The position numbers were made by a program, and so were the translations under genes. A stretch of DNA of 16,063 nucleotides, from positions 1 to 16,063 of the forward strand of contig JAWOFP010000053.1 of assembly GCA_046497485.1 (NCBI GenBank), written 5' to 3'. Below the pieces are notes generated by a model. That model did no database searches, was not told the origin of the DNA, and saw only the letters and a program-made list of their open reading frames with translations. The DNA is from Candidatus Nanohaloarchaea archaeon. Its GTDB lineage: Archaea; Nanohalarchaeota; Nanosalinia; Nanosalinales; Nanosalinaceae. How positions within the stretch are numbered: position 1 is the stretch's first letter; each line of letters opens with the position of its first letter. Positions 693 to 16,063 of this stretch are shown here, piece after piece.

Positions 693-694
693 TT

Positions 695-1342: not shown

Positions 1343-1395
1343 AGAAAAGTTTACTCACTGGGAGTCTTTTCACATTTACTGACTAATTGTTGTTT

Positions 1396-2205
1396 ATGAA
1401 TAATTCAATTCTAATAACGGGAGCAAGCGGAACAGTTGCAAAGGCCTCAGCAAGGGAATTGAAAGATCACGGCTTTACTGTGATAGGTGTAAGTAGAAGT
1501 GTAGAAAACGATGCTGAAGAGTATACCAGGACTGAAAGACTAGATCTATTAGAAAGCGGGGATCTAGAACAGCTCGAAGATTTAATGGAGGAAGTTGACG
1601 CGGTTTTCCATCTTGCCTGGAATTTAACTGTAGAAAACTTTGATACTGGAGAGAAATGGCCTGAGAATATTGAAATGTTTGAAAATGTAGTTAATGCCGC
1701 GAAAAACAGTGATGTAGATATCTTAATTAACGGTTCTTCTATCCATGCAGGAACAGGAGATATATCTGCTTATACTGTAGAAGCCTCACTTGAAGATACT
1801 CCCGAGCCTTACAGAAGCAGTATCGATCCAGAAAGCGAATTCGATCTTAGAAAAGAGGATCCGGAAAAATTATTAGATCCTCGTGAAGATAATCCCGACA
1901 GTCCTTACGGAGAATCTAAAATTGAGACCGAGAAAAAGCTGCGGAAAGCTGTTGAAAAAAACGATTTCAAGCTAGGGATAAGCATTAGAATCGGAGGGAT
2001 AAATTCTGAAGATAAGACAGAATTAGATGGAGAGCCATTCTACAGTAGCCTCTACTGGAGTCATAGAGACATTGGGAGAACTCTGAAGAACATCCTAGAA
2101 AGCGATCTAAATGAGAAAAAAGGCTATCACCAGTTTTACGGAGTCTCCGACAACAAAGGAAGAATTTTCAATATTGAAAACAGCTTCACGAGCCCCAAAC
2201 AGTAG
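1396..2205 (+). CDS. NAD(P)-dependent epimerase/dehydratase family oxidoreductase (extended SDR, sugar dehydrogenase-like)
   Basis: ITGASGTVA Rossmann motif, DAVFHLA, SSIHA, YGESK (YxxxK), SIRIG and FYGVSDN. ATG 1396 preferred over TTG 1387. Confidence 0.88.
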   Translation: MNNSILITGASGTVAKASARELKDHGFTVIGVSRSVENDAEEYTRTERLDLLESGDLEQLEDLMEEVDAVFHLAWNLTVENFDTGEKWPENIEMFENVVNAAKNSDVDILINGSSIHAGTGDISAYTVEASLEDTPEPYRSSIDPESEFDLRKEDPEKLLDPREDNPDSPYGESKIETEKKLRKAVEKNDFKLGISIRIGGINSEDKTELDGEPFYSSLYWSHRDIGRTLKNILESDLNEKKGYHQFYGVSDNKGRIFNIENSFTSPKQ

Positions 2206-2275
2206 AAAGAATGAGTTGCGGGAGCGACGCAGAAGTCCTGAGCTTCGTTCTTTTGGTTTGCTTAAATCTTTAAGC
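2206..2275. other. Intergenic double stem-loop (possible terminator, structured RNA or repeat element)
   Basis: AAAGAATGAGTT-g-CGGGA (2206-2223) can pair with TCCTG-AGCT-TCGTTCTTT (2236-2253) allowing G-U pairs and bulges. It is followed by the perfect inverted repeat GCTTAAA-TC-TTTAAGC (2260-2275). Confidence 0.45.
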
Positions 2276-2422
2276 GCGTCATATCTTCTGTAAACTACTA
2301 TTAGTCCTTAACTTTTAATAGGCCTTTGATTATTTCAATATTGATCATAAATCAATGTTAATTATAGAGAGTTTTTTGGGACTATGAAAGGATTTTTGTA
2401 GTTCTCCCGTTCAATTTCATGT

Positions 2423-2776
2423 ATGGGTGACAGCGAATTTTTCAGTAAAATAGTTCTGGATGAAGACGTACCTATACAGATAGGCTATAAATTAGAAGGA
2501 AGAAGTATCGAGGTTTTGAGTCATAAGAGTAGCGCTTCAGATAATGAGGTGCTGCGTTTTGCTGCAGAAAATGGAGCTCCGTTACTAACTAAGGACGAGG
2601 ACTTTAGAGAACGAGATGAAGAATTAGATCATTTTGGTATCTTGATTGATAACCAGATGCACCTGCGTGACTGGAACTTAGTAGCAGATACAATCACGGC
2701 AATGTTGAAGAACATTCCAAAAGAAGATTTACGGGACAATATTTGGAGAGTGTCAGATTATTACGGCGTTTTCTAG
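2423..2776 (+). CDS. DUF5615 family PIN-like protein (VapC45-type putative toxin)
   Basis: VLDEDVP, SDNEVLRFAAENG and LLTKDEDF match the Mut7-C/DUF5615 PIN pattern. Adjacent to a DUF433 gene. Confidence 0.85.
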   Translation: MGDSEFFSKIVLDEDVPIQIGYKLEGRSIEVLSHKSSASDNEVLRFAAENGAPLLTKDEDFRERDEELDHFGILIDNQMHLRDWNLVADTITAMLKNIPKEDLRDNIWRVSDYYGVF

Positions 2777-2991
2777 GCTATAGCAGGTGTTTCGCCATCC
2801 TCTCGCTTATTTATATATTCTACTGCCTCCTTCACGTCTTCAACAGTAATACTTTGATACTGTTCAGCTATCTCTTCAAAAGTCATGCATCTAACTGTAT
2901 AGAGGTCGTACAGAGTCTTTGCTCCTATTCTTGTACCTTCAACTCTCGGCTTACCATGAAGAGTATCCTCTGTTTTCACAATACTAACCAT
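2773..2991 (-). CDS. DUF433 domain protein (VapB45-type putative antitoxin)
   Basis: HGKPRVEGTRI...EEIAEQY..IT.EDVKEAVEY is the DUF433 signature. GAGGT RBS lies upstream of ATG 2991. Confidence 0.92.
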   Translation of the reverse strand: MVSIVKTEDTLHGKPRVEGTRIGAKTLYDLYTVRCMTFEEIAEQYQSITVEDVKEAVEYINKREDGETPAIA

Positions 2992-3122
2992 GGTAAAATT
3001 ACCTCTCTAAATTGTTTTATCAGTTTTGGTTAAGAAATGTTTAGTATAGGAGTCTAGCTTCATCCTAAACCCTCACTTCTTCGTCCATCTCTTTCCAGCC
3101 AATTCTTTGAATTGAGGTATTT

Positions 3123-3740
3123 TCATTTTGGACGACCCACGTAACACTCTATTTCCTGCGAATCATCAGCTAAAATTTTGGCTATTGCCCTGTGATTTCC
3201 ATCATTAATCATTCCCCATGTATCCTCTATATCCCAGTTCCTTTCTCCGTGAACCTCTTTCATCCTATCCAGCTTTTCAGGCCTGTTCCCAGGAGTAACG
3301 ACCCAGGGATAAAATTGATTCAAAACTTCAGGTACCTGCTTCAAATTATGGATATATCTCACACTCTGGGACTCTTCAGGATCTGCATTTTTCACCCATT
3401 CAACGACTTCCAGAAGCGTGCCTGTGATTACTTCTGGAGGCAGATCTCCAGCACGAGGCAGAGTCGTGCCTAAATCCTCTACTTTTACCTTTCTTTTCTT
3501 CCAGGAACATTCCTCGAATATTTTAGATCTGTAGTCAGGATTATTATCTAACTCCTGTAAAAGCTGTTTCTTTTCACCAAGACTGTGATCCTTCTCCCGA
3601 TACTCCTGCCTGATCTTTTCAATGACTTCTTCTATCAAATTTTCTCCGCTGTCCGAGGCCTCAGAAATCTTTCTCTGAAGGCCTTCTTGTTTGCAGATCT
3701 CCCATATAAGATAGTTATCGATAACTTTTTGATCGTTCAT
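3123..3740 (-). CDS. Hypothetical protein with C-terminal ParB/sulfiredoxin-like DGNHR motif
   Basis: 205-aa acidic ORF ending MINDGNHRAIAKILADDSQEIECYV, resembling the ParB/Srx DGxHR core. Confidence 0.6.
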   Translation of the reverse strand: MNDQKVIDNYLIWEICKQEGLQRKISEASDSGENLIEEVIEKIRQEYREKDHSLGEKKQLLQELDNNPDYRSKIFEECSWKKRKVKVEDLGTTLPRAGDLPPEVITGTLLEVVEWVKNADPEESQSVRYIHNLKQVPEVLNQFYPWVVTPGNRPEKLDRMKEVHGERNWDIEDTWGMINDGNHRAIAKILADDSQEIECYVGRPK

Positions 3741-3797
3741 AGTAAAGAAGTTATAGGGCGTGAATTATAGGCTTAATCTTCTAACCTCCAACAGAAT

Positions 3798-4505
3798 TCA
3801 GTAACCTGAATTAAAGCCCCTTGTTTCTGAATCCTGCGTGTAGACCTTCTCAACAACATTTTTGGCTTCCTCGGCCACCCTGTCCATATCTATAACACTA
3901 TTGACTTCACTCTGGTCGTAGCCGGATAGTTCGACAAAATTTCTATACTCTTCTTCGCCTACCTGTTCGCTGGGAAACTCATCAGTTTTCATCCATCTGT
4001 CTATTTGATGTTCGAAAGCCAAAAGGTCTGGAAGAAGATTTTCTTGGTACAATATTTTGACATCTTCATAAAGTTCTCGGAATCCGAATACATCTATTTC
4101 TTCACCTTCTGGGATCCTGTTTTCCCATAGCTCTCTTCTTTCTTCTTCGGATGTGTCTCTGCTCATCAGTCTTTCAAAATCCTCTAATCCATACTGTATT
4201 TCTTCAAAGGCTCTCGCAAGATCATGTTTTTCCTTATATGCTCGGGCAAAGTCTTGTTCATAGACATTCAATGGAGGATTTTCTACTGGATCTGTGGGGT
4301 GAATTCCGTCTAGTTCTCTCGATAGATGAGAGCTTATCTCGTCCATTCTCCGGAATCCTGTTCCTCCAAAGTAAATCATTAAGGCTCCTAATTCTTCCAA
4401 AGAGCGAACATGATCGTCCTGCTCTACAACTTTTTCTCCTACCATTTTAGGGTCTGTTTCGTTCTCGACCTGTTCTATAACTTCTCTCTGTTTTTCCAAT
4501 TTCAT
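3798..4505 (-). CDS. Hypothetical acidic protein
   Basis: Long, very E/D-rich ORF with no motif recognised. ATG 4505 (MKLEKQ) preferred over the track start at 4550, which would leave only 9 bp to the divergent gene. Confidence 0.7.
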   Translation of the reverse strand: MKLEKQREVIEQVENETDPKMVGEKVVEQDDHVRSLEELGALMIYFGGTGFRRMDEISSHLSRELDGIHPTDPVENPPLNVYEQDFARAYKEKHDLARAFEEIQYGLEDFERLMSRDTSEEERRELWENRIPEGEEIDVFGFRELYEDVKILYQENLLPDLLAFEHQIDRWMKTDEFPSEQVGEEEYRNFVELSGYDQSEVNSVIDMDRVAEEAKNVVEKVYTQDSETRGFNSGY

Positions 4506-4559
4506 GTCAATTAGAACCAGGCCAAAAGTTTTATTACTTACTGATGACAATTAAATTAT

Positions 4560-5183
4560 ATGTCTCGTAATCTGATAATCCCTGAACAAGAGCTGGATGA
4601 ACTAATAGAACTGCCATACCAAGAGAATGAGATACAGTTTGCTTTAGTTTACCCAGAACAGGATGCTACAGGACTACCTTCAGATCAGATAGGGGTCTGC
4701 GGGGGAATTGTTCTTGCAGAAGGAAGCCCAGCTGAGGTAGGAAGGAGTCATACTGCAGAAGGACTGTTAAGAGACTTATCAGGAAGAACAGAAGATACAG
4801 ACTTTGAATACCTACTAGGACATACGCACAGTGAGAAAACGGTAGAAAATCATGGTGTCCAATACGCAGATGGTTTCTCTTCAGGCGATTTAAAATCTAT
4901 CGATAAAGAAGCTCGGAGAAGAGGTGAACCAGGATATTTTGAAGTTTTAGTTACTCCTGGCAGACCTGTTCAAATGACTGATGGAACTACAGGTTTTGAT
5001 CCAGACAACTGGAACATAATGGCTTCACACGACGATGTAGATATTTACAGAGGCAACTGGTCGGATGAAAACCCGCCAGAGTCAAATATGTCGTCAAAGG
5101 CCTTCCTACAATACAACAAGGAAATGAGAGAAGAGCTTGACGAATTAGCGGACACATACGATGTTGAGTTTTTAACTCGGTAA
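4560..5183 (+). CDS. Putative JAB/MPN (JAMM-motif) metalloprotein
   Basis: N-terminal E followed by a hydrophobic strand (NEIQFALV), then GHTHS and FSSGD, i.e. E...HxH...SxxD. Confidence 0.6.
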   Translation: MSRNLIIPEQELDELIELPYQENEIQFALVYPEQDATGLPSDQIGVCGGIVLAEGSPAEVGRSHTAEGLLRDLSGRTEDTDFEYLLGHTHSEKTVENHGVQYADGFSSGDLKSIDKEARRRGEPGYFEVLVTPGRPVQMTDGTTGFDPDNWNIMASHDDVDIYRGNWSDENPPESNMSSKAFLQYNKEMREELDELADTYDVEFLTR

Positions 5184-5278
5184 TATACTTCCTACTAATA
5201 AATTAATTCTATCCAATCAGAACTTAATGCCGAAGAATTACCAATTATTAGATTGTTTCAAATGCTATTGAGTATAAA

Positions 5279-5962
5279 TTAACACTGACGTTTCAGCAGC
5301 GGTGATTTGAAATTCACTCCTTTTTCGAGCATATGGTTTATGACTGGTTTGAACATTTCTCTGGATTCTTCATGGTCATGTATTAGTATGATGTCATTAG
5401 AAGCACTACAATTTATGCCCTGCATTTCTTCAGGATTATCTTTCTCAATTCTCTCCAGAATAGCTTCCAGGCCATCTATTTCGTATTCCTTACAGTCGAA
5501 AGTCCAAAACCAGTCTACTCTGTTCCGAAGTCCTTGTTCCTCATACCAATCGTAAGTTATACCATCAAAATTTGGTTTGGTGTAATCAAGTTCACTGAGA
5601 AAACTCTGGAATTTAGAGGTAAGCCTCCCGCCAGCATCTCCATAAGGAAATCGAAATATCTTTGCAGGTCTTTCCTTATCTGCCTTCTCATAGACGTCTT
5701 CGATCAATTCATCCGTTTTCTTTATTTCCTGCTTCCCCTCTGAAAGAGATAGCTGAGAGAAATTTGGATGAGTATATGAGTGATTGCCTATTACAAATCC
5801 GTTCTTGATAGCTTTGATGACTATTTCAGTTCTTTGCTTGATGTATCTGCCTTCACAGAAAAATATCGCAGGTATTTCTTTTTCCTTTAGAAATTCTATC
5901 TTCTCCTCCATAAACGGTGAAGGCGCATCATCTACGGTAAGATATGCTATTTTACCCTTCAT
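5279..5962 (-). CDS. Polysaccharide deacetylase (NodB homology, CE4)
   Basis: LTVDDAP, GNHSYTHP, FRFPYG and LIHD motifs. ATG 5962 lies 2 bp after the upstream stop, suggesting coupling. Confidence 0.92.
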   Translation of the reverse strand: MKGKIAYLTVDDAPSPFMEEKIEFLKEKEIPAIFFCEGRYIKQRTEIVIKAIKNGFVIGNHSYTHPNFSQLSLSEGKQEIKKTDELIEDVYEKADKERPAKIFRFPYGDAGGRLTSKFQSFLSELDYTKPNFDGITYDWYEEQGLRNRVDWFWTFDCKEYEIDGLEAILERIEKDNPEEMQGINCSASNDIILIHDHEESREMFKPVINHMLEKGVNFKSPLLKRQC

Positions 5963-5964
5963 CT

Positions 5965-6438
5965 TCAATCCCACTCTACTGGTTCATATGCTTCTGGATA
6001 AAGTTCTAGGATCTGGAATTTCTGGATTTGAGGGAATAGTTTCCACTCTCCGCCTTCTTTTCTAACGAAATTACTAATTATGACCGTTGTTTCTTCATCT
6101 CCAAACTCGTTTATTGCATGTCTACAGGCTCCACAGGGCATAGTTCCTTTATGATCTTTGTCTGGTACTGGGCCTGCTACCAGAACTGCTTCTATCTTTG
6201 AGTTTTCGGTTTCTTCATATTGGAGCTGGTTGATGGCGTGTCTCTCAGCACAGAAGTTAAAACTCGGCTGACTCGACTCGAACGGTTTACCCTCATAGAT
6301 CTCTCCGCTTTCAGAGAGAACGAAAGCGTATAGAACATCATATAGACCTTCTTCCCATCTGCTCTCGGCGTGGTTCAATATCCTTTCTCTCGCTGTATCA
6401 ACAAGTTCTTCTTCAGATTCAGTGAGTTCTTCAGTCAT
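5965..6438 (-). CDS. cdd: Cytidine deaminase family protein (three-Cys zinc type)
   Basis: FCAERHA and PCGACR zinc motifs. ATG 6438 (MTEE) is preceded by a GAGGT RBS. Confidence 0.85.
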   Translation of the reverse strand: MTEELTESEEELVDTARERILNHAESRWEEGLYDVLYAFVLSESGEIYEGKPFESSQPSFNFCAERHAINQLQYEETENSKIEAVLVAGPVPDKDHKGTMPCGACRHAINEFGDEETTVIISNFVRKEGGEWKLFPQIQKFQILELYPEAYEPVEWD

Positions 6439-6486
6439 TTTTCTATTACCTCTATCAAAGTAATTAAACACAGATTATTCTAAAAC

Positions 6487-7494
6487 ATGGGTATGAGGCA
6501 AGTAGCTGAAAAAGACATTACAAAAGCAATCAACCAACTTGAGTCGGAAAGTCAAATAATAGAGATAGAAGATATCTCAGGACACAATAACAGAATCTTC
6601 AAAGTCAGACTAAAAGATAGAACAGTTATCTGCAAGTTCTGCACGGGAGAAAACAGCAAACAGGACTGCCGAAAAGAAGTAAATATGCACCAACTCCTCA
6701 AAACCAAGACAAATGTTAAAACGCCTGAAATCCTTTACAGCGACCCCTCAGCAAACAAAACAGAGTTCCCATTCTTCATAACTGAATATATCGAAGGAGA
6801 AAGCCTTCAGGATAGCTTCCCAGAACTGAAAGCAAGAGAACAGATAGAAGTTGTGGAACAGGCAGTTCATATACTCGGAGAAGTTCACTCAAAAATCTCT
6901 TTTGAATATGCTGGAGAACTAATACCTGAAAACAAAGACATTATAGTTGACGGAAAATTCACCTGGATTGAATACTTGAAAGAGGAATTGAATCAAGCCA
7001 TAGAGAAAGCAGGCGATACCAGGTTCAGTGACGTGACAGAGAAATCAGAAGACTTTGTTAACAAGCTTTCCGAACTAGATGAACCAGAAAAGACACTTGT
7101 TTTCTACGACTTCCGACCAGATAATGTAATCGCCATGGATGGTAGAATCGAGGCTTTGATTGATTTTGAGAGAGCCTGGTCAGGTGACCCGTTGTGGGAC
7201 TATGCATACAGCGAAATGAGCTTCGTCGAACCACACCGCTACTACGATATGCACGAACCACCAAACGCAGACGAAGAAGAACTCCGAAAAGCCTTCCAAG
7301 AAGGTTATGAAACCCAAAGAGAATTGGAAGAAAACTGGCGGCAAAAAGTAGAGCTTTACAAACTATGTATAATCATCAAAAGATTCAACAGCTTCGAAGA
7401 CTGGACAGAAAGTACAGAAATGACCGAAGAAGAAATAAAACGGCAAGAAAACCTGCTGCGGACCCATCACAACAGACTCTACAAAGATGTGTAA
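6487..7494 (+). CDS. Aminoglycoside phosphotransferase (APH/choline kinase) family protein
   Basis: ICK/KE N-lobe, PEIL, ITEYIEG, DFRPDNV catalytic loop, LIDFE and GDPLWD. Confidence 0.88.
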   Translation: MGMRQVAEKDITKAINQLESESQIIEIEDISGHNNRIFKVRLKDRTVICKFCTGENSKQDCRKEVNMHQLLKTKTNVKTPEILYSDPSANKTEFPFFITEYIEGESLQDSFPELKAREQIEVVEQAVHILGEVHSKISFEYAGELIPENKDIIVDGKFTWIEYLKEELNQAIEKAGDTRFSDVTEKSEDFVNKLSELDEPEKTLVFYDFRPDNVIAMDGRIEALIDFERAWSGDPLWDYAYSEMSFVEPHRYYDMHEPPNADEEELRKAFQEGYETQRELEENWRQKVELYKLCIIIKRFNSFEDWTESTEMTEEEIKRQENLLRTHHNRLYKDV

Positions 7495-7578
7495 GGTAAC
7501 AATTAAAATTAAATCCTGCTAATCAACATTCTTTATCAGTCTATCAAATATAATAAAAAGGCTCAATAATACTATTGC

Positions 7579-8415
7579 ATGGGCATCGAGCCGGAAAACT
7601 ACTACAATGACTTAGGACATGAGGAATGGGATAGGTCCGAAGATCTTTTTGTCCACTCCATAGAACACGAAAACACATATCCATATCTAGAGGAACATCT
7701 TCCTGAAGAAGGCCACATCCTTGATGCCGGAGGCGCAGCAGGAAGATACACAGTCTGGCTAGCAGAAAAGGGCTACAAAGTTACACTTGTCGATATCAGC
7801 GAGGAGCAGTTGAAGATAGCTGAACAAAAACTGAAGGAGAGAGGCCTACTCGATCAGGTAGATATCCAGAAAGGAGATATACGAGACCTAGACTTTAGAG
7901 AGGAGAAGTTTGATGCAGTTCTCTGCCTTGGAGGCCCACTATCACACGTCATAGACGATGAAGAAAGAGATACAGCAGCCAACGAACTAATCAGAGTCAC
8001 CAAAAAAGAACATCCAGTATTCGTTTCAGTAATGGGCTTCTACGGCTGCCTGATGATTCATGTCTTGAATGAATGGAGCTTTATTTGGGAAATAGAAGAT
8101 TTCAATGAGCGCCAAAAATACGATGAAAAGCATAGAGAGAAGGCTGGTGAAGATGATCCTGGATTTGCCAACACCTATTTCTTCAAATCACATCAACTTG
8201 AGAACGTACTCCAAAGGAATGGATTAGAAGTAGGCAAAATGATAGGCCTGGAAAACGTCGTCAGCGTAATGGAAGCCATGGAGGAGGACGGAGAAATCGA
8301 TATCAGCGGAGAATACAAAGAAAGACTCAGAACCACAGCAAGAATTCTTAGGGATGAAGAGGCCTCACCAGACCTATCCAACCACATACTCGCAGTAGGT
8401 TGGAAAAAGTACTAG
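7579..8415 (+). CDS. Class I SAM-dependent methyltransferase
   Basis: ILDAGGAAGRY, LVDIS, GDIRDL and FDAVLCLGGPLSH. Confidence 0.92.
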   Translation: MGIEPENYYNDLGHEEWDRSEDLFVHSIEHENTYPYLEEHLPEEGHILDAGGAAGRYTVWLAEKGYKVTLVDISEEQLKIAEQKLKERGLLDQVDIQKGDIRDLDFREEKFDAVLCLGGPLSHVIDDEERDTAANELIRVTKKEHPVFVSVMGFYGCLMIHVLNEWSFIWEIEDFNERQKYDEKHREKAGEDDPGFANTYFFKSHQLENVLQRNGLEVGKMIGLENVVSVMEAMEEDGEIDISGEYKERLRTTARILRDEEASPDLSNHILAVGWKKY

Positions 8416-8577
8416 TATGTAAAATTCTTCAGAATTAGCAGCCTTCTTTGCCTTTCTGGCAAAAATACCTTTTCAGAATATTTCAATACCGATCTCAGGT
8501 TAAAAAGTTAAGCTTGCGTCACATGCCCTGGAATTTCCTTCATGAAATTTTTGATTCTAAAATAATTAAGGCCTCTT

Positions 8578-9726
8578 TTAACATCCAGAAATATTCCCTA
8601 TAGACTCTATAAGTTTATCGATCTCTTCCTCAGTGTTATAGGCCTGTAAGCTAATTCTAACCGAGTTCTTTCCTTTCTCTCTACAGTGTTTACCGTCTCT
8701 GACATATATTCCTTCACTGTCCAGAATGAAACCGATGTCTTTTGCAGGGAGATTCTCTATAGAGAAAGATATTATCCCATAACCTACATCATCACAGTTT
8801 GCGTAGTAAGGCCCTTTCTCGAATTTTACTTTTCCCTCTAGTTTTTCCATCAAATACTTGGTGAGTTCGAGATTTCTCTCCCTTATTTTCTCGATTCCAA
8901 TCTCCTCTATGTACTCGATGGCAGCCCTCATAGAGATTATACCAGCCACATTAGGGGTCCCGGTTTCAAGGCGTTCAGGTACTTCACCGGTATAGCCTCC
9001 TCCGACCTGATAATCCCCGATTTTCTCGTGTATCTTCTCGTTGATGTAGAGGCCTCCTGTACCTGTTGATGCAAACATTTTGTGGCCTGAAAAGGACAGG
9101 AAATCAATTTCCATCTCTTTTACATCAATAGGTACATGCGCTATGCTCTGACAGGCATCAAGAGATATCAAAGGCCTGTATTCTAGGCCTTCTATCAGCC
9201 TCTTTACCTCAGCTTTACCGCCGTATGCGTTGTGTATATGAGTTACTGAGATAAGGTATGTTGATTCATCTGTTTTCTCAATGATCTCATCTATATCTGG
9301 ATCGCCTGTCTCCAATACACTGTATTCCTGTATAGTGATCTCTTTACCCTGCTTTGCAAGAGTTTCCTTCAACTTCATCCAGGGCCTCTTCGTGGATTTA
9401 TGAGCTTCTTCTGAGACCAGTATCTTCTGCCCATCGTTAATATCTTCTGAGATCAGTTCCGGTATCATGTTAAGTGATTCTGTAGCCCCCGAGGTAAAGA
9501 CTATCTCTTTCTTATCTGCGCCGATGAAATCCGCGACTTTTACCCGGCTCTCCTCTACCTTTTTGCCAGTCTTATTGGCAAGACTGTAACTACCTCGGCC
9601 CACATTTGAGGCCTCTGAAAGATAACTTTCTACAGCACTGATTACTTTCTCAGGTTTCTGAGTCGTAGACGCATTATCAAAGTAAATCCCATCATTCTCC
9701 CGAAAAAATGGGAAATCCTCTCTCAT
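8578..9726 (-). CDS. Class V PLP aminotransferase, SufS/CsdA-like cysteine desulfurase
   Basis: REDFP, YFDNASTTQKP, FTSGATESLN, DACQS, SGHKM (PLP lysine), ETGTPN and RDGKHC (group II catalytic Cys). ATGA overlap with the upstream gene. Confidence 0.9.
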   Translation of the reverse strand: MREDFPFFRENDGIYFDNASTTQKPEKVISAVESYLSEASNVGRGSYSLANKTGKKVEESRVKVADFIGADKKEIVFTSGATESLNMIPELISEDINDGQKILVSEEAHKSTKRPWMKLKETLAKQGKEITIQEYSVLETGDPDIDEIIEKTDESTYLISVTHIHNAYGGKAEVKRLIEGLEYRPLISLDACQSIAHVPIDVKEMEIDFLSFSGHKMFASTGTGGLYINEKIHEKIGDYQVGGGYTGEVPERLETGTPNVAGIISMRAAIEYIEEIGIEKIRERNLELTKYLMEKLEGKVKFEKGPYYANCDDVGYGIISFSIENLPAKDIGFILDSEGIYVRDGKHCREKGKNSVRISLQAYNTEEEIDKLIESIGNISGC

Positions 9727-10517
9727 TCTCCTAACCTCCCGGCGTAAACAATTGGAGAGATGCTATAGTGGTATTGATCGCAGTTTTCGGTGTAAGACCT
9801 GATCCCAGTATCGATAATATCGTTCAACCTGTTTTTCTCTTTTTTCGATAAATCTGCTTCCTTTTCTATCGATGAATAGGCCTCCAAAATATTTTCCATG
9901 TGCTCGATAGTTTTCTTGCGTTCAGGTTTTTCCAGTATAGAAAACTTTTTGATAAATTCTTCTTCATAACTATTAGATAGTTTATCTGCTGTATCTGTGA
10001 ACCTCTTTTTGTTATAGGACTTGAATTTCTCCGTTCTGGCTGTACCTAGTTTCATCTCTAGAATTCTATCACATTGTAAGATACTCTGATTCAACCAGTT
10101 ACCATGGAAAACTGCAATAACAGATTTTTCTGTCATAAGGCCTTCTATTCTTTGAAGTACTGTTGAGGTATCTACTTCCGGTAGATGTAGGAGATCTGCA
10201 CACCAGATAAGATCAAACTTTCCGTCCAGATTCAGATTTTCCGCATCTTGGCGATAGAAACTGGTTTCTAGATCACTTGATCTGGATATCTCTTTTGCCT
10301 TCTCCAGATGTGGATCCGAGATATCTACACATGTCACTGAGGCCTCTGGGAATACTTCCTCCATGACTTCGAGATGTCCTCCAGGACCACAGCCTAAATC
10401 CAGAATCCTGGGTTTTTCATCTATGAGACCTTCAAGTTCTTTTAATGCCTGGAGAACCGCTTTTCGAGTATAGCTGTTGTAGGCCAGCTCTTTGTCTATG
10501 TATTCATTGTCGTGCAT
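9723..10517 (-). CDS. Class I SAM-dependent methyltransferase
   Basis: ILDLGCGPG, VDIS and FDLIW motifs. AGGTGA RBS upstream. Confidence 0.88.
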   Translation of the reverse strand: MHDNEYIDKELAYNSYTRKAVLQALKELEGLIDEKPRILDLGCGPGGHLEVMEEVFPEASVTCVDISDPHLEKAKEISRSSDLETSFYRQDAENLNLDGKFDLIWCADLLHLPEVDTSTVLQRIEGLMTEKSVIAVFHGNWLNQSILQCDRILEMKLGTARTEKFKSYNKKRFTDTADKLSNSYEEEFIKKFSILEKPERKKTIEHMENILEAYSSIEKEADLSKKEKNRLNDIIDTGIRSYTENCDQYHYSISPIVYAGRLGE

Positions 10518-10526
10518 CTATTTCAC

Positions 10527-11801
10527 CTAGAAGCTGTTTTCGAGAGGTTTTCCTGAGTCCCTCCATTCTGTGACCCCATTTTCAAGACTGTAGGCCTCTC
10601 CACCTTTTTCATCTATCATGGCTGCGTATTTCCCGGATTCGTCTCCTGTTGGACATACCACCAAGATTTTTCGATTTGGGAAAGGATTTCCTGTCCTCAG
10701 TATATCCTTCAGTCTATCTCCTGTTATATTGATCGAGCCTGGTATATGTGAGGCCTTGTATGCAGGATTTGATCTTATATCTATAACAGTAAAGTCTTCA
10801 AACTCTTGATGTGCCTGATCCACGGTTATCTGATCTGGCTCCTTTGTTGTTTCGATTTCCTGTTTTTCTCCGCCGAAAAGTTCAGGCCTCCTCTTTTTGA
10901 AGTACGACATGTAAGGTTCGAGGCGGTCACACGCAAGGAAAACCGCAGTCTTTTCCTCCTCAAGCTCTTCAGGAAAATAATCTCTGATTGCAGCAAGTTG
11001 GGCTCCCGTAGTAGGGCCTGAAAGAAGGCCTGAACCTCTTATCAGGTCCAGGGTCGCATCAATAGCTTTCCCGGAGTTTACTGTTAATACATCTGAGTAA
11101 AGCTCTTTTTCATACAGGCCTACCTCCCACATCTCATTCTCTGTTCTTATCCCTGGTATGAAGTCATCGGAGCTTGAGACAATTCCTACAGTGTTCAAAT
11201 CAGGGTTTCTTTCTCTTATGGCCTGTGTTATTCCTTTTGTCGAGCCTGTAGTTCCAAGGCCTCCGAAAAAGTAATCTATCTGGCTCAGATCCTCCATTAT
11301 CTCAGGCCCTGTGTTTTCTCTGTGGGCCTCTGTGTTTTTCTCGTCAGTGTACTGGCCTGTCCTGTAGTAACTGTCGCCTTTTTCTTCCATCAAATTATCG
11401 ATGTATGTTAATGGGTCATCAGGGTCGTTCGGATCAGGGCATTCGCTTTTCCCAGGTAATTCCTCTATCTCAGTTCCCATTGTTATCAGCAGGTCTTTTA
11501 CTTCATCAATCTTGATTCTGTTGGTGATGGTTCTGAAATCTATTCCTCTCGAGGATGTTATACCCTGGATGGCCTTGGCCGTATTGCCGCTGGAAGATTC
11601 TACGACTTTCCTATCTTTTTCTCTGATCATTTCTATATCGTCTTCAAGCAGGCTCCAGGCAACTCTGTCTTTCAGCGAGCCAAATGGATTCATCGACTCC
11701 ATTTTGACATAGAGCTGGAGGTTTCTGACTCCGTGAACCTCTTCATCGATTTTCAAAAGCGGTGTATCCCCTATAAGTTCGGTTATATCTTCGTATTTCA
11801 T
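10527..11801 (-). CDS. Cysteine synthase family (fold-type II PLP) enzyme fused to C-terminal rhodanese
   Basis: IGDTPL, NPFGSLKDR (PLP lysine), ESSSGNT and GLGTTGS. C-terminal DIR...HIPGS...VCPTG...GVTEW rhodanese with active-site Cys. Confidence 0.92.
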   Translation of the reverse strand: MKYEDITELIGDTPLLKIDEEVHGVRNLQLYVKMESMNPFGSLKDRVAWSLLEDDIEMIREKDRKVVESSSGNTAKAIQGITSSRGIDFRTITNRIKIDEVKDLLITMGTEIEELPGKSECPDPNDPDDPLTYIDNLMEEKGDSYYRTGQYTDEKNTEAHRENTGPEIMEDLSQIDYFFGGLGTTGSTKGITQAIRERNPDLNTVGIVSSSDDFIPGIRTENEMWEVGLYEKELYSDVLTVNSGKAIDATLDLIRGSGLLSGPTTGAQLAAIRDYFPEELEEEKTAVFLACDRLEPYMSYFKKRRPELFGGEKQEIETTKEPDQITVDQAHQEFEDFTVIDIRSNPAYKASHIPGSINITGDRLKDILRTGNPFPNRKILVVCPTGDESGKYAAMIDEKGGEAYSLENGVTEWRDSGKPLENSF

Positions 11802-11804
11802 TTT

Positions 11805-13202
11805 TTATACACTGTAATCCTCATCATCTGTAACTTTGATTTTTCCATTTTCCATGGTCACAGCCATTTTTTCTGCTGTACTGTGGTGTATGGCTTTGTT
11901 TTCTGCAAAATCCATATTGTATGCTGCAGTGTTGATGAATGCAAGTATATCTCCGTTCTGTGGCATCTGATCGAAGAATGTTCTATGCTTGTAGATAATA
12001 TCGCTTTCCAGACAGAGGTTGCCTACAATGAAGCCACTGCCTTCTTTAGCGTCCTGATCTGATATCAGAACCGGATCAAGCATCATCTCCTGTTCGCTAG
12101 AGTACAGAGAGAACTTATTCGCATCTACCCCTATCAAGTTATTCTCTTTCACAGATTCCTTCCTGAACATTACTTCTGTCAAAGTAATACCGGCCTGATC
12201 AAGCAAGGCTCTTCCGGGCTCGACCCAGAGCTCAAGCATAAAGTCACTGAGAAGATCCGCAAAACTCCGGTTATAACCAGGTATATCAGATTTCAGCAAC
12301 TCATCAAGATACTCATCTTTTGAAGGCGAATTAAAGTAATCATAGAAAGTATTCGAGCCTTTAATTGAGTCCCCATCACGGTAAAAACCGAAATTTTCAT
12401 CCTTCCAGGTCAAGCCCCCATTATTTTTGACATTATCCTTCAAGGCTGAAATATAGGCCTCCCATTCATTTCTGTCTTCAATATAGTTGGTTCTGAAACC
12501 TCCTCCGATGTTCAAAATCTCTCCTACCAGGCCTTTTGAGGAAAAACTTTGGTGAAGGTCAAAAATATTGGATATAGCGATTCTTCTCTTCCTCATATCG
12601 GAGGTCGAGAGATGAAATGCAAAGCCTTTGAAATCCAGGTTATCATACTTAGTTAATATTTCAATTATTTCATCTTTTCTATCAGCGGAGATACCGAACC
12701 TCGAATCCTTTGATATTGATTCTCTATCCTTGGGATTGAAACCTGAAATCCTGATCAATACCTCGATTTTGGAACCAGATTCTCCTAGATAGGCAAGTTC
12801 TTCCAGGTTATCGACATTAACAGTTATTCCTCTCTCGATAACTTCATCAAGGAAATCTCTCTTCTTGGGGCCTGTAGCCTCGATTTTATTCTCATCAAAA
12901 CCTGTCTGAACCGCGTTCTCAAGTTCATCTAAGCTGGCCACGTCAACTCCTATACCGCAGTTATAGGCTTCTTTTACCAAGGCCTTTGACCTATTTGCCT
13001 TATGAGCCCAGAAGATCTTGCCTGAAATATTATTTTTCTCCATAACCTCCTGGAAGCTTTTAGCATTTCTCTTCAAGGCCTCAGGAAAAATCAGGTTCAG
13101 TGGCGAGCCTTTCTCCTCTATTAATTCCTTAACTTTTTCCTCATTTTCCAGGAAATCCTCTATCTGAGAAGATTTCCTCGGTGTCAGGCCTAGTTTACTC
13201 AT
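11805..13202 (-). CDS. Fold-type III PLP decarboxylase, diaminopimelate-decarboxylase-like (Y4yA family)
   Basis: AHKAN (PLP lysine), DVAS..EL, SRFG, FHL, NIGGGF, EPGRAL, GNLCLESD and NTAAY. The long insert between GGGF and EPGR is typical of the Y4yA subfamily. Confidence 0.88.
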   Translation of the reverse strand: MSKLGLTPRKSSQIEDFLENEEKVKELIEEKGSPLNLIFPEALKRNAKSFQEVMEKNNISGKIFWAHKANRSKALVKEAYNCGIGVDVASLDELENAVQTGFDENKIEATGPKKRDFLDEVIERGITVNVDNLEELAYLGESGSKIEVLIRISGFNPKDRESISKDSRFGISADRKDEIIEILTKYDNLDFKGFAFHLSTSDMRKRRIAISNIFDLHQSFSSKGLVGEILNIGGGFRTNYIEDRNEWEAYISALKDNVKNNGGLTWKDENFGFYRDGDSIKGSNTFYDYFNSPSKDEYLDELLKSDIPGYNRSFADLLSDFMLELWVEPGRALLDQAGITLTEVMFRKESVKENNLIGVDANKFSLYSSEQEMMLDPVLISDQDAKEGSGFIVGNLCLESDIIYKHRTFFDQMPQNGDILAFINTAAYNMDFAENKAIHHSTAEKMAVTMENGKIKVTDDEDYSV

Positions 13203-14133
13203 AACTGAACTCCTCGTCTATCTGGTCTGTAATATCTCCTACAGCATTGACAACATAGTCCTGTCCGGCATATTTTCTGTGGAGTTCGTGGACCCGTTTC
13301 AGCCGCTTTTCGTCCTCCATCTCTGAGTTCTCGGAGGCCTCCCTGATCTTTCCAAAGAGATTTTCGGGCAACATCTCTGGATTAACGGAGTTTCCTCTCT
13401 GTCTTGACTTCTTTATCTCTCTGGAAAACTCCATAAATCCCAGAAATTCGTCTCCAATATTTTCTCTAAGATATTCTCTGTCTTCCTCATCCATGACTTT
13501 GTTCCCTACCAGGTAGACGTTTTCATACATTCCTGCCTCTTCAGAGAGTTTTCTGTACTGTTTATAGACTTCGATGCCTTCTGGAGTTGGTTCGACTATC
13601 AGGAATATGGCGTCAAACTGGGCATGAAGCGTATTTGAGAAAGCATCTGTTCCTGCAACCATATCCGTTACAAGCCATTCATCTTCAAGACTGAGGTGGG
13701 ATAAAATATTTTCAAATACAGCAAGATCTGTATGATAACAGCTAGTACCTATCCCATCTTCCTCATACGTGCCTACATGAAGGAAGAAAGTACCCTCATC
13801 AGGACTCTCGCCGTACTTAGAGAGAACATAATCATCTTCATCGAAGTTGATCAGCTTAGATCCTTCGGCTGGAGGCGTAGTCTTGTATACATGTGATGGA
13901 GACTTTACTCTATCATTTTCCTCAGTAAGGTATTCTTTGATATCTGATGAGTTCTCAGATCTAGAAAGGCCTTTATCCTGATCAAGATCTGCATCGATCA
14001 GCTTTGCCAGATGCTGGTTAATATCTGCGTCTACAGCGAGAATCTCCTCATCTTGAGCCCTCAATTTCTGGATGAAAAGGCCTGCCAATGTGCTTTTACC
14101 GGAACCGCCTTTTCCAACGAAGGCAACTCTCAA
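13195..14133 (-). CDS. CooC-like MinD/SIMIBI family ATPase
   Basis: GKGGSGKS deviant Walker A, VDADIN, DMVAG, VEPT and GNK. TTG start with a strong GAGGTGA RBS. 8-bp overlap with the next gene. Confidence 0.88.
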   Translation of the reverse strand: MRVAFVGKGGSGKSTLAGLFIQKLRAQDEEILAVDADINQHLAKLIDADLDQDKGLSRSENSSDIKEYLTEENDRVKSPSHVYKTTPPAEGSKLINFDEDDYVLSKYGESPDEGTFFLHVGTYEEDGIGTSCYHTDLAVFENILSHLSLEDEWLVTDMVAGTDAFSNTLHAQFDAIFLIVEPTPEGIEVYKQYRKLSEEAGMYENVYLVGNKVMDEEDREYLRENIGDEFLGFMEFSREIKKSRQRGNSVNPEMLPENLFGKIREASENSEMEDEKRLKRVHELHRKYAGQDYVVNAVGDITDQIDEEFSYE

Positions 14134-14210
14134 GGTTTCTCACCTCGAAGCCTGAGGCCTAGAGATTTCTCAAAGTTCAATCTTTCAGATTCGAAAGCAC
14201 TCGACAACAT
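14130..14210 (-). CDS. Putative 26-aa leader ORF (MLSSAFESERLNFEKSLGLRLRGEKP)
   Basis: ATG at 14210. Its TGA overlaps the ATPase TTG start (TTGA). AT-rich TATA-like sequence lies 25-38 nt upstream. Below the ORF-track cutoff. Confidence 0.4.
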   Translation of the reverse strand: MLSSAFESERLNFEKSLGLRLRGEKP

Positions 14211-14335
14211 ATAATTGTTAAAGAATCTAAAGTTTTTTAATAATATAAGTTAAGTTGGATGTATATAGTTAGTACTTGATGATAAATCTCATACGAAAAA
14301 AGAGGCCTTTCACGGAATCTAGAGGGTAAAACAGG
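14211..14335. promoter_or_regulatory. Divergent promoter region with imperfect inverted repeat
   Basis: AT-rich spacer between divergent units, with TATA-like tracts near 14235-14250 and 14261-14268. Inverted repeat ATTGTTAAAGAA-N7-TTTTTTAATAAT at 14214-14244. Confidence 0.5.
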
Positions 14336-14707
14336 ATGCAAGAGAAAAAACAGGTAGATAAGGTAAAGCTCAACGAGCTTAATCCACACGAACAGGTAAT
14401 TGAGGAAAACCTGAGGAAAGTGCTGAAATCGCTCAAAATCGAGAAAAGACTGAAGGAGCCGGTTGTAGTCGATGAAGAGACTAAAGTAATCCTTGATGGA
14501 CATCACAGAGTAAAGGCCTACGAGATACTTGGACTTAGAGAGATTCCCTGCAGACTTGTTGATTACAGTTCCGATAAGATAGCTGTTGAACCACATCAGA
14601 ACGGCGATATATCAAAGGAAGAAGTAATACAGAAAGGCCTTAGGGATGATCTTTTCCCTCCGAAGACTTCTAAGCATAGAATCTTTCAGGATATAGAAAA
14701 TTCTTAA
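14336..14707 (+). CDS. ParB/Srx-fold protein, minimal SerK/SbnI-like (putative free serine kinase)
   Basis: LNPHEQ, ILDGHHR, VDY, SKEEVI and FPPKTSKH parallel the SerK motifs PHEQ, DGHHR, LDY, TKEEV and FSPKTTRH as I recall them. Confidence 0.75.
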   Translation: MQEKKQVDKVKLNELNPHEQVIEENLRKVLKSLKIEKRLKEPVVVDEETKVILDGHHRVKAYEILGLREIPCRLVDYSSDKIAVEPHQNGDISKEEVIQKGLRDDLFPPKTSKHRIFQDIENS

Positions 14708-14733
14708 TAACTTTCGCCCGGAATTATAGTAAT

Positions 14734-15117
14734 ATGAGTGTCGTAAGTGTATCACTGAATGAGACGCTGCTTGAAGATATTGACGAATTCATGGATGAAC
14801 AGGGTTTCTCAGGCAGAAGCGAAGTAATGAGGACAGCGGTCAGAGCTTTACTCAGAGACAGGAAAGAGATATCAGGCCTTGAAGGAGAGGTAAATGCTGT
14901 AGTGATAGTAACTCATGAAGATGAAGACTCGGCAGAAATCGATGAAATACAACATGACTATCAGGAAACAATCACAACCCAGTTACATAACCACATGAGC
15001 GATCACAAGTGCCTGGAAGTCTTTATGCTACACGGCAACGCAGAAAAAGTCAAAGAACTTTACAACAAACTGGAGGCCTCAAGTAAAGTAGAACAGGCCA
15101 AGATGATTATTCCATAA
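14734..15117 (+). CDS. nikR: NikR-family nickel-responsive ribbon-helix-helix regulator
   Basis: N-terminal RHH (VSVSL...GFSGRSEVMR). The C-terminal domain QH...LHNH.....CLE retains the His/His/His/Cys metal ligand set. Confidence 0.88.
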   Translation: MSVVSVSLNETLLEDIDEFMDEQGFSGRSEVMRTAVRALLRDRKEISGLEGEVNAVVIVTHEDEDSAEIDEIQHDYQETITTQLHNHMSDHKCLEVFMLHGNAEKVKELYNKLEASSKVEQAKMIIP

Positions 15118-15139
15118 ATAGTTGGAGTTTTAGAACTAG

Positions 15140-15259
15140 ATGAGAGGATATCCTGAGAAACAAGAATTATCAGAGGCCTCATACAATGAGAAAACCGCGG
15201 AAAAACTCTGGAAGAAAAGCGAGGAACTCACAGGTACCGAGTTCAAGATTCAAAACTAA
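15140..15259 (+). pseudogene. C-terminal remnant of a retinol-dehydrogenase/WWOX-type SDR oxidoreductase
   Basis: Translates to MRGYPEKQELSEASYNEKTAEKLWKKSEELTGTEFKIQN, matching the typical tail (RGxP...SYD...AxxLWxxSEELTG). In-frame TAG immediately upstream and no room for the rest of the gene. Confidence 0.75.
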
Positions 15260-15295
15260 TGAAAAACTATAATCTAACTAGAGAGGATTACTGTC

Positions 15296-15955
15296 ATGCC
15301 AATGAAGGTTGAGGAGAAAGTTGATGCAGAGTTTATTGATGAATGGGAAAATGGTTTTGGCTGGATAGCCAGGCCTGAGGAGGATATGGTCAGGACCAGT
15401 CACGCCTTCGAAGACAATGGAGTCTTTCTTGTTGACCCATTGGATGCAGAAAACCTAGATGAGAAACTGGAAGATTATGGAGAGGTGAAAGGAATAATCG
15501 TGCTTTTTGACCGTCACCAAAGAGATTCGGAACAGCTGGCAGAAAAATACGGCTGCCCGATCTATGTTCCTGAATGGCTTGAGCCAGAGATTAAACTAGA
15601 TGCCGAACCGATTGAAAACAAGATACCTGGTACAAGCTGGGAGTTAATCGAAACAGTAAACACGCTCACAGGAAGAGAAGCAGGCCTCTACAACAAACAA
15701 ACAGGTACTATAATAGTAGCTGACGCCTTAGGAACAGTAGACTTCTTCAAAGGCAGAAACGAAAAATTAGGCCTGAACCCTCTTTACCGGCTCAACCCTC
15801 CGAAAAATCTGTTAAACTATGATATAGACAGGATATTCTGCGGACACGGAATAGGTATACAAGAGAACACTAAGAAAACCTTGAAAAATACATTAGACAA
15901 GGCAAGGCGGAAAGCACCCTCAGCATACTTCAACGCAGTTAAATCAATGATATGA
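15296..15955 (+). CDS. Metallo-beta-lactamase-fold protein (degenerate motif), conserved hypothetical
   Basis: LVDP, DRHQRD, PIYVP, IVADAL and CGHG follow MBL motif order. GAGG RBS upstream. Confidence 0.75.
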   Translation: MPMKVEEKVDAEFIDEWENGFGWIARPEEDMVRTSHAFEDNGVFLVDPLDAENLDEKLEDYGEVKGIIVLFDRHQRDSEQLAEKYGCPIYVPEWLEPEIKLDAEPIENKIPGTSWELIETVNTLTGREAGLYNKQTGTIIVADALGTVDFFKGRNEKLGLNPLYRLNPPKNLLNYDIDRIFCGHGIGIQENTKKTLKNTLDKARRKAPSAYFNAVKSMI

Positions 15956-16063
15956 AAATTCTCCTCACTCATCTTTCAGGCCTTCATACTTCAACCTGAT
16001 TTTTTCAGGAGTCGTTTAATCCTCCCCTGAGAAATAGGATACGCCTCCACCCGTTAATGTGAA

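Follow-up and report, generated by a model that had tools for sequence, protein, structure and literature searches.

A conserved gene cassette around a CysK/SbnA-like-rhodanese fusion, divergent from nikR in a nanohaloarchaeon, is a candidate pathway for a metal-binding small molecule

The window analyzed here is a 16,063-nt stretch of DNA from Candidatus Nanohaloarchaea archaeon (GenBank assembly GCA_046497485.1, contig JAWOFP010000053.1, positions 1 to 16,063), which corresponds to contig C50 of a 0.97-Mb genome that is 97% complete. Its 21 open reading frames (ORFs) were scanned against Pfam and NCBIfam. Five genes on the minus strand form one operon that encodes three pyridoxal phosphate (PLP) enzymes, one of which is fused to a rhodanese domain, as well as a methyltransferase and a CooC-like ATPase. 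Divergent from this operon are a gene for a small SerK-like protein, referred to here as mini-SerK, and a nikR gene. The core of the operon is a conserved cassette of many bacteria and a few nanohaloarchaea that is apparently undescribed. The features of the locus are as follows.

8578-9726, minus strand: SufS-like class V PLP enzyme, likely a cysteine desulfurase (382 amino acids [aa]; Aminotran_5, E = 4e-89)
9723-10517, minus strand: accessory class I S-adenosylmethionine (SAM) methyltransferase (264 aa; Pfam Methyltransf_25/31)
10527-11801, minus strand: CysK/SbnA-like PLP domain fused to a GlpE-type rhodanese (424 aa; PALP, E = 1e-43; Rhodanese, E = 4e-14)
11805-13202, minus strand: LysA-like fold-type III PLP decarboxylase (465 aa; Orn_Arg_deC_N and Orn_DAP_Arg_deC)
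13195-14133, minus strand: CooC-like deviant-Walker-A ATPase (312 aa; TTG start; CbiA/MinD/ParA P-loop)
14134-14335, no strand: divergent promoter region, a 202-nt spacer with a conserved core at 14213-14275
14336-14707, plus strand: mini-SerK, ParB/Srx fold, predicted serine kinase (123 aa; ParB_N)
14734-15117, plus strand: NikR-family metal-responsive repressor (127 aa; RHH_1, E = 2.7e-5; NikR_C, E = 5e-18)

The junctions within the minus-strand set measure -4, +9, +3, and -8 nt in the ORF listing, and these values bear out an earlier sequence-only reading of this DNA, which had assigned the five overlapping or closely spaced genes to a single operon. That reading had also placed the operon opposite a ParB-fold gene and nikR, and the two plus-strand ORFs do diverge from it across the 202-nt spacer. 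Furthermore, it had recognized three folds used to make staphyloferrin B precursors, namely, a ParB-fold kinase, a CysK fold, and a LysA fold, all of which were recovered by domain and PDB matches. In agreement with its statement that SbnB and the siderophore synthetases of the nonribosomal peptide synthetase-independent (NIS) type are missing, no SbnB-type or NIS-synthetase family was detected by Pfam or NCBIfam among the 21 window ORFs, and a system of the staphyloferrin B type was discarded on these grounds.

Searches with the fusion protein returned 2,502 relatives at E ≤ 0.001, and both domains were present in all 120 among the matches listed. To compare gene neighborhoods, we used the best 80 of an estimated ~1,400 matching stretches in species-representative genomes, in which the presence of genes was scored by tblastn with the window proteins. 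This set comprises 66 loci from Nocardia and 14 others, which include two nanohaloarchaea (L009 and L010 [Nanohaloarchaea archaeon SG9]), Patescibacteria, Nomurabacteria, Obscuribacterales/Cyanobacteria, Bryobacterales, Pirellulales, Cryomorphaceae, Eubacteriales, Planosporangium, and a proteobacterial metagenome-assembled genome (MAG). Since the Nocardia loci are kin and not independent, they weigh as approximately one lineage; the 14 others still cover many phyla. The archaeal-type loci compared were the window, L009, L010, L094, and the metagenome locus L095.

The sequence-only reading would have been refuted had these genes failed to occur together in other genomes, and they do occur together. 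The LysA-like gene was found directly upstream of the fusion gene in 80/80 loci, and because the arrangement is seen again in all of them, it is not due to chance. A match to the class V enzyme was present in 73 of the 80 loci and one to the P-loop ATPase in 9, whereas ParB_N and NikR matches were confined to 2 loci, both nanohaloarchaeal. Beyond the nine genome loci, the ATPase is present in L094 and L095. No description of the cassette was found in the openly accessible full-text literature searched; the name Y4yA led there to papers on rhizobial type III secretion systems only, and an encapsulin preprint was rejected as a description of the cassette, the operons reported in it being others.

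Three layouts can be distinguished. (i) In 66 of the 80 loci (64 from Nocardia plus those from Pirellulales and Planosporangium), the cassette consists of the class V gene, a gene for a ~428-aa protein, the LysA-like gene, and the fusion gene. (ii) In an extended layout, the added genes are those for a flavin amine oxidase together with a GNAT protein of ~430 aa (7/80), a ~500-aa protein (6/80), a SAM methyltransferase (6/80), and an Asp/Arg-hydroxylase-like protein (4/80); Fur and another ATPase are often encoded as well. (iii) The layout is minimal, with the ATPase, LysA-like, and fusion genes and with or without the class V gene, in nanohaloarchaea, Patescibacteria, Nomurabacteria, and Eubacteriales. 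The ~428-aa protein, found in 66/80 loci, is usual where the ATPase is missing, and both representatives examined (those of L017 and L046) carry a domain similar to CopZ/CopP at the C terminus (E values of 8e-8 and 6e-5). In Nocardia and Pirellulales, this protein (L017:7177-8463 and L046:7322-8578) belongs to no Pfam family and occupies the slot of the ATPase; DUF5134 membrane proteins and a P-type ATPase are encoded near it. A conserved protein of ~500 to 550 aa without a Pfam or NCBIfam family was noted in the extended bacterial cassettes L073, L077, L064, L071, and L075.

The distribution of the cassette within the host phylum is narrow. The fusion gene was detected in 6/70 genomes, corresponding to 5/32 genera, and in none of four genomes of the same genus, which are 68 to 92% complete; this scarcity indicates that the cassette is not housekeeping. 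The nearest bacterial locus among the best 80 is that of a Patescibacteria MAG, with 54% identity. The cassette is accessory and patchy, a pattern consistent with horizontal acquisition.

The fusion is the sole PALP protein of the host genome. Its best NCBIfam match is SbnA_fam (TIGR03945) with 153.9 bits (cut-off, 349.95), barely above cysKM with 150.2 bits, which is also below its cut-off. In an alignment of 121 family members, the PLP lysine K44 and the loop S70-S71-G72-N73 are invariant (121/121), as are R95, Q150, Y151, N156, and D292-R293. In the motif PGIR216-219, P216 and R219 are invariant, and G217 and I218 are found in 120/121 sequences. The protein has a fold-type II PLP domain with the catalytic lysine and the asparagine loop. 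A family-specific cysteine, Cys121, lies in an S-E-C-P-D-P insert and is likewise invariant. The same applies to the rhodanese active-site Cys383 (121/121), along with G386 and S389; when the rhodanese domain was aligned to single-domain rhodanese-family PDB chains, Cys383 came to lie opposite their loop cysteine. The NCBIfam families listed for this domain are GlpE and PspE. The AlphaFold2 model of the fusion has a mean predicted confidence (pLDDT) of 82, and the top Foldseek match, above CysK and SbnA, is AMA synthase (8H4H/8H4Q), which aligns across both domains (E = 2e-26; ~460 aligned columns; 21 to 22% identity). The two-domain architecture of PALP plus a rhodanese-like domain is that of AMA synthase and Fda4.

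The LysA-like protein scores 168.7 bits against NCBIfam lysA (cut-off, 297.9), and its PDB matches are LysA, BtrK, and N-citrylornithine decarboxylase. Neither another fold-III decarboxylase nor a dihydrodipicolinate synthase (DHDPS) was found in the 97%-complete host genome; a role in lysine biosynthesis was ruled out by the missing DHDPS together with the score below the cut-off. The class V enzyme matches SufS best in NCBIfam (305 bits; cut-off, 475), and all 12 sequences aligned retain the PLP Lys216 and the catalytic Cys348. Cys311 is found only in cassette-linked copies, and the housekeeping SufS lacks it. The host genome has two class V genes, both SufS-like. The one in the cassette has no paired SufE, SufU, or SufBCD gene, and the other belongs to a SufS-NifU_N pair on contig C49, by which housekeeping Fe-S supply was ruled out for the operon copy. 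The view that the operon enzymes are not housekeeping LysA, CysK, or SufS was already part of the sequence-only reading and is upheld by the lack of DHDPS and by the separate SufS-SufU pair.

For the ATPase, CooC1 (3kje) was the only PDB sequence match (E = 3.5e-13). Twelve orthologues, which start at the same residue as the TTG-started window protein, share without exception the deviant Walker A motif GKGGxGK[ST]T (GKGGSGKST in the window) as well as H41 and C132-Y133-H134. A role of the ATPase in metal handling is likely.

Mini-SerK matches NCBIfam SerK (NF053625) with an E value of 2.4e-14 and 53.1 bits (cut-off, 380), and residues 20-114 and 204-226 of the Thermococcus kodakarensis free serine kinase 5x0b are covered by the alignment. 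The position of the SerK catalytic glutamate (E30 of TkSerK; the Glu of PHEQ), which is altered in the mutant chains 5x0j and 5x0e, is kept. H18-E19, DGHHR54-58, and P108/K110-T111/K113-H114 (PKTxxH) are invariant in 5/5 orthologues. Among 60 homologues, 59 have 116 to 163 aa and one has 206 aa; the sole organism-named one is nanohaloarchaeal. A SerK-like gene is linked to the cassette in the window, L009, L010, L094, and L095. In L094, all genes are on a single strand in the order ATPase, LysA-like, fusion, methyltransferase, class V, and ParB_N, and its place as the last gene of this operon links mini-SerK to the cassette in function. Both of the only two class V genes of the host are SufS-like, so that a route to O-phosphoserine of the SerC type was not detected; a serine kinase activity of mini-SerK would fill this gap. 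O-Phosphoserine, the substrate suggested by the sequence-only reading, would fit this SerK-like operon member. A 205-aa ORF without a Pfam family elsewhere in the window (3123-3740, minus strand) has a terminal D-G-N-H-R motif that recalls the DGHHR of the mini-SerK ParB/Srx fold.

NikR of the window was compared with Pyrococcus horikoshii NikR 2bj1 (E = 3.8e-18), and H74, H85, H87, and C93 are identical; we take these residues to be the His3Cys high-affinity nickel ligands of the E. coli and P. horikoshii proteins. None of the NCBIfam NikR cut-offs was reached (93.8 versus 111, 79 versus 105, and 75.5 versus 83 bits). NikR is 87 to 90% identical in L010 and L009, whereas the cassette enzymes there are only 45 to 60% identical. 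Similarly, the ~62-nt promoter core (14213-14275) has 50 invariant columns with respect to L009 and L010, with flanking proteins that are 45 to 68% identical. Inside this core lies the candidate operator, the inverted repeat ATTGTTAAA-N13-TTTAATAAT at 14214-14244. A 7+13+7 inverted repeat is found upstream of the cassette in 5/5 archaeal-type loci (window, L009, L010, L095, and L094). The strict operator pattern occurs once in the genome, as compared to 0 expected in shuffles, and neither the promoter core nor the palindrome was found at any other place in the host genome. The 22-bp centre-to-centre spacing of the repeat matches that of the E. coli nik operator. Binding of NikR at the candidate operator is worded here as a proposal because the same stretch may carry TATA/BRE elements. 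As an observation in its own right, this regulator-operator module is unusually conserved, with a near-invariant promoter core across three nanohaloarchaeal genera.

Metal-related neighbors are the most consistent theme of the cassette surroundings. Of the 14 loci outside Nocardia, 8 have a Fur-family gene within or next to the cassette; Pfam confirmed six of these genes (L011, L060, L064, L073, L077, and L084), and the other two were detected by tblastn (L071 and L087). In L011, the gene order is cassette-Fur-ZnuA-ZnuC-ZnuB; Fur adjoins the ATPase gene in L084 and L060 and is found within the extended clusters of L064, L073, and L077. A COG0523 GTPase is encoded by the first operon gene in L010 and L095, and in the latter NikR is divergent from ZnuABC. 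Neither ZnuA nor COG0523 was found in the host genome. The link to metals drawn by the sequence-only reading is far stronger than the window shows, with Fur, ZnuABC, COG0523, HMA domains, ZIP, and NikR recurring nearby. On contig C38 of the host genome (G000:C38:24461-26738; L096:4562-6839), a second NikR gene lies opposite a ZIP transporter gene, followed by a VTT/DedA gene and a gene for a 125-aa glyoxalase-family protein. In this NikR paralogue, Lys replaces H87. The pairing of NikR with the glyoxalase-family gene was also seen in L095, beside ZnuABC.

The window methyltransferase is an optional, lineage-specific gene and not part of the core. It had no tblastn match in any of the 80 genome loci and no orthologue in 40 relatives, and 5.8 billion proteins yielded 15 matches, one of them close (62%). 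Window methyltransferases and those of the extended bacterial clusters are not orthologous. L093, with a fusion that is 98% identical, has lost the gene by an in-frame deletion; what is left is a stretch of 12 codons in which those from the start and the end of the gene are joined (L093:1979-2021). The junction of the methyltransferase-less form, which links 9739 to 10515, is present in contigs of three of four metagenome runs, these three coming from three studies, at depths of 87.5, 5.6, and 26.7; methyltransferase-bearing contigs were found in two runs, and one run holds both forms. This coexistence was seen in a lake metagenome, where the form without the gene (depth, 87.5) occurs beside the form with it (depth, 59.7). 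L094 has a methyltransferase at the same position with 34% identity, whereas its neighbors share 64 to 71%. Methylation had been envisaged by the sequence-only reading as an integral step of the pathway, a claim that we abandon: the gene is missing in 80/80 loci, lost from a close relative, and polymorphic in metagenomes, and the methyltransferase was ruled out as a core step.

The operon structure, the domains, the conserved synteny, the invariant residues, the metal-related neighbors, and the presence or absence of the methyltransferase are direct observations; from these we infer a pathway, including its substrates, product, metal, and regulation. Mini-SerK would phosphorylate serine to O-phosphoserine, from which the CysK/SbnA-like domain would form a PLP-aminoacrylate and perform a beta-replacement. 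The nucleophile is probably sulfur, passed as a persulfide from Cys348 of the desulfurase to Cys383 of the rhodanese domain and perhaps on to Cys121. Sulfur is favored because the relay cysteines are invariant and the desulfurase is dedicated. The LysA-like enzyme would then strip the alpha-carboxylate and leave an amine of the aminoethyl-thiol or aminoethyl-thioether type, with the methyltransferase as an optional tailoring step. Handling of the metal would fall to the CooC-like ATPase and its invariant Cys-Tyr-His, and NikR would repress both divergent promoters via the conserved inverted repeat. We tentatively favor, with some reserve, the interpretation that the operon converts O-phosphoserine into a small amine with sulfur and nitrogen donors that binds metal, and that the operon is induced when nickel (or zinc) is scarce. 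A bolder version strikes us as doubtful, namely, that O-phosphoserine beta-replacement fed by the desulfurase-rhodanese relay, followed by decarboxylation, is a widespread route to a thia-diamine or aminothiol. This compound would be an S/N metallophore or an intracellular metal buffer of a new class, a dedicated CooC- or CopZ-like chaperone would load it, and symbionts of the DPANN and Candidate Phyla Radiation (CPR) groups with reduced genomes would use it to compete for nickel or zinc. Examples of products under this version would be of the lanthionine-to-thialysine or cysteamine type.

A number of points weigh against the favored interpretation. (i) Sulfur transfer from cysteine to cysteine would be futile, and the true sulfur acceptor, and hence the product, is therefore uncertain. 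(ii) AMA synthase, Fda4, and SbnA form C-N bonds, and SbnA_fam marginally outranks cysKM for the fusion. The sulfur nucleophile of the sequence-only reading consequently stands only as plausible, with the fully conserved rhodanese (121/121) and desulfurase (12/12) cysteines on its side and the C-N chemistry of AMA synthase and Fda4 against it. (iii) The class V gene is missing in 7/80 loci, including both nanohaloarchaeal genomes and L060; three of the seven (L040, L054, and L057) are truncated near a contig end on that side. (iv) Mini-SerK has 123 aa as compared to 242 aa in the two-domain SerK, ~90 central residues being missing, and its AlphaFold2 model, obtained from a five-sequence alignment, has a pLDDT of 45. 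The earlier proposal of a SerK-like kinase holds for the family match and for the retained glutamate and DGHHR, while at half the length of SerK its kinase activity is a prediction. (v) No exporter or importer gene was found within the operon. (vi) The Fur-family neighbors score best as PerR/Fur, below the NCBIfam cut-off, and the metal differs by lineage, being Ni, Zn, or Cu. (vii) Thiol-redox genes lie near several cassettes, namely, those for glutathione peroxidase, a thioredoxin-reductase-like protein, and desulfoferrodoxin in L084, MsrB in L060, DsbA/DsbB-like proteins in L094, and a DCC1-like protein in L093, so that a redox instead of a metal role is possible.

Four other explanations were weighed. 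The main one is a nitrogen route, in which the fusion would join O-phosphoserine to the amine of an amino acid and the LysA-like enzyme would decarboxylate the resulting pseudo-dipeptide or L-2,3-diaminopropionate (L-Dap) to an ethylenediamine chelator similar to ethylenediaminedisuccinate (EDDS) or AMA, with the rhodanese and the desulfurase serving regulation or another step. The Foldseek ranking, with AMA synthase over both domains ahead of CysK and SbnA, and SbnA_fam as best NCBIfam match agree with this route. So does the set formed by Fda4, the FAD (flavin adenine dinucleotide) oxidase Fda3, and fda5, which parallels the amine oxidase and GNAT genes in 7/80 loci, and Tln5 is a further O-phosphoserine C-N enzyme according to a preprint. 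However, the route leaves the invariant rhodanese cysteine (121/121) and a desulfurase present in 73/80 loci without a role, the window has neither an oxidase nor an SbnB-type gene, and 153.9 bits are far under the SbnA cut-off of 349.95; we consider it rather unlikely. In a second explanation, the desulfurase, the rhodanese, and a CooC/Mrp-like ATPase would assemble or insert a metal-sulfur species as part of metal-sulfur center or cofactor maturation, for which the two remaining PLP enzymes would provide an organic ligand or recycle it. The invariant Cys-Tyr-His in an ATPase of the MinD/CooC/NifH class, the invariant desulfurase and rhodanese cysteines, and the COG0523 and HMA-domain partners in other lineages would be accounted for. 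The invariable pair, though, is decarboxylase plus fusion (80/80) and not the ATPase (9/80), no client metalloenzyme is conserved beside the cassette, and the SerK-like gene is left unexplained, which makes this explanation quite unlikely in our estimation.

The remaining two explanations concern thiols. Ordinary cysteine supply, with SerK and an O-phosphoserine sulfhydrylase as the only cysteine route of an auxotroph and with thiosulfate or polysulfide as the source of the sulfur delivered by the rhodanese, draws on the fact that the fusion is the only PALP-family protein of a 97%-complete genome, on the GlpE type of the rhodanese, and on SerK plus CysK being a proven archaeal route (PMC5120207). 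We judge it highly improbable, given that the fusion occurs in 6/70 genomes of the phylum and 0/4 of the genus, that the LysA-like gene is coupled to it in 80/80 loci although the genome lacks the diaminopimelate (DAP) pathway, and that the metal regulator and the metallochaperone-type ATPase stay unexplained. Moreover, Nocardia and other bacterial hosts are expected to own ordinary cysteine synthases. A low-molecular-weight thiol for redox or persulfide buffering, under PerR-like regulators in bacteria, would agree with the best matches of the Fur-family neighbors to PerR/Fur and with the thiol-redox genes near the cassette in L084, L060, L094, and L093. Surroundings with ZnuABC, COG0523, HMA, ZIP, and NikR indicate metals instead, as does the complete metal site of the window NikR, and we regard this possibility as very unlikely, bearing in mind that redox and metal roles are not mutually exclusive.

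Other genes of the window were also inspected. The stretch 6487-8415 (plus strand) encodes a kinase of the APH family and another class I methyltransferase, which converge with the operon at its 3' end. In L093, the class V gene likewise has an APH fragment downstream of it, but no link to the cassette was found. A DUF5615/PIN-like protein (2423-2776, plus strand) and the product of a short ORF upstream may form a small toxin-antitoxin pair, with the PIN-like protein as the toxin. The 219-aa ORF 3' of nikR (15296-15955, plus strand) has no Pfam or NCBIfam family and no homologue in related loci.

If the interpretation as a metal-ligand pathway is true, a small-molecule route for metal homeostasis would be present in an estimated ~1,400 stretches of species-representative genomes, with Nocardia, Melainabacteria, CPR bacteria, and nanohaloarchaea among the hosts. 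The family of O-phosphoserine "pseudo-dipeptide" enzymes (SbnA, AMA synthase, Fda4, and Tln5) would gain a member fed by a sulfur relay, and 1-Mb symbiotic archaea without most amino acid biosynthesis would be seen to retain an expensive pathway of five genes that is switched by NikR. The system lends itself to experiments, with five soluble enzymes, natural methyltransferase knockouts, and a 31-bp candidate operator.

The cassette can be compared with several known systems. T. kodakarensis has an ADP-dependent free serine kinase that feeds an O-phosphoserine-using CysK, according to PMC5120207. Mini-SerK, which lacks the ~90-aa middle, has its best PDB and NCBIfam matches in SerK; in addition, the window has a decarboxylase, a desulfurase, an ATPase, and a metal regulator. 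In the accessible part of PMC12751119, AMA synthase (Aspergillus oryzae, 8H4H/8H4Q) is described to condense O-phosphoserine with Asp to AMA (aspergillomarasmine A), a Zn chelator, and the rhodanese-bearing Fda4 (Fusarium poae) to condense it with Ala, after which the FAD oxidase Fda3 releases L-Dap; the Fda4 cluster also contains the acetyltransferase gene fda5. Both enzymes combine PALP and rhodanese-like domains, like the window fusion; the bonds they form are C-N bonds, and sequence comparison starting from the window fusion does not pick up the fungal rhodanese domain. Unlike the window, the fda genes named in that part of the article include no desulfurase, decarboxylase, or ATPase. Tln5, according to a preprint, is another enzyme that forms C-N bonds with O-phosphoserine.

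CooC (3kje) and the window ATPase share the deviant Walker A motif of the MinD/CooC class. The window protein is ~60 aa longer and has the invariant C132-Y133-H134, and no carbon monoxide dehydrogenase (CODH) was found in the annotated loci, whereas CooC has a Cys-x-Cys nickel site and CODH as its client. SbnI, SbnA, and SbnH of Staphylococcus aureus have the same three folds as mini-SerK, the fusion, and the LysA-like enzyme, respectively. Compared to the staphyloferrin B pathway, the logic of which is metal regulated, the window adds a rhodanese, a desulfurase, and an ATPase, its kinase homologue is half the size, and the scores are below the family cut-offs. In the EDDS (aes) zincophore cluster of Amycolatopsis japonicum, SbnA-like, SbnB-like, and LysA-like enzymes under the control of Zur produce an ethylenediamine-based chelator; this cluster is not known to have a rhodanese fusion, desulfurase, or CooC-like ATPase. 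We class the cassette as a variant within the metal-regulated ligand pathways that are built on SbnA-like enzymes.

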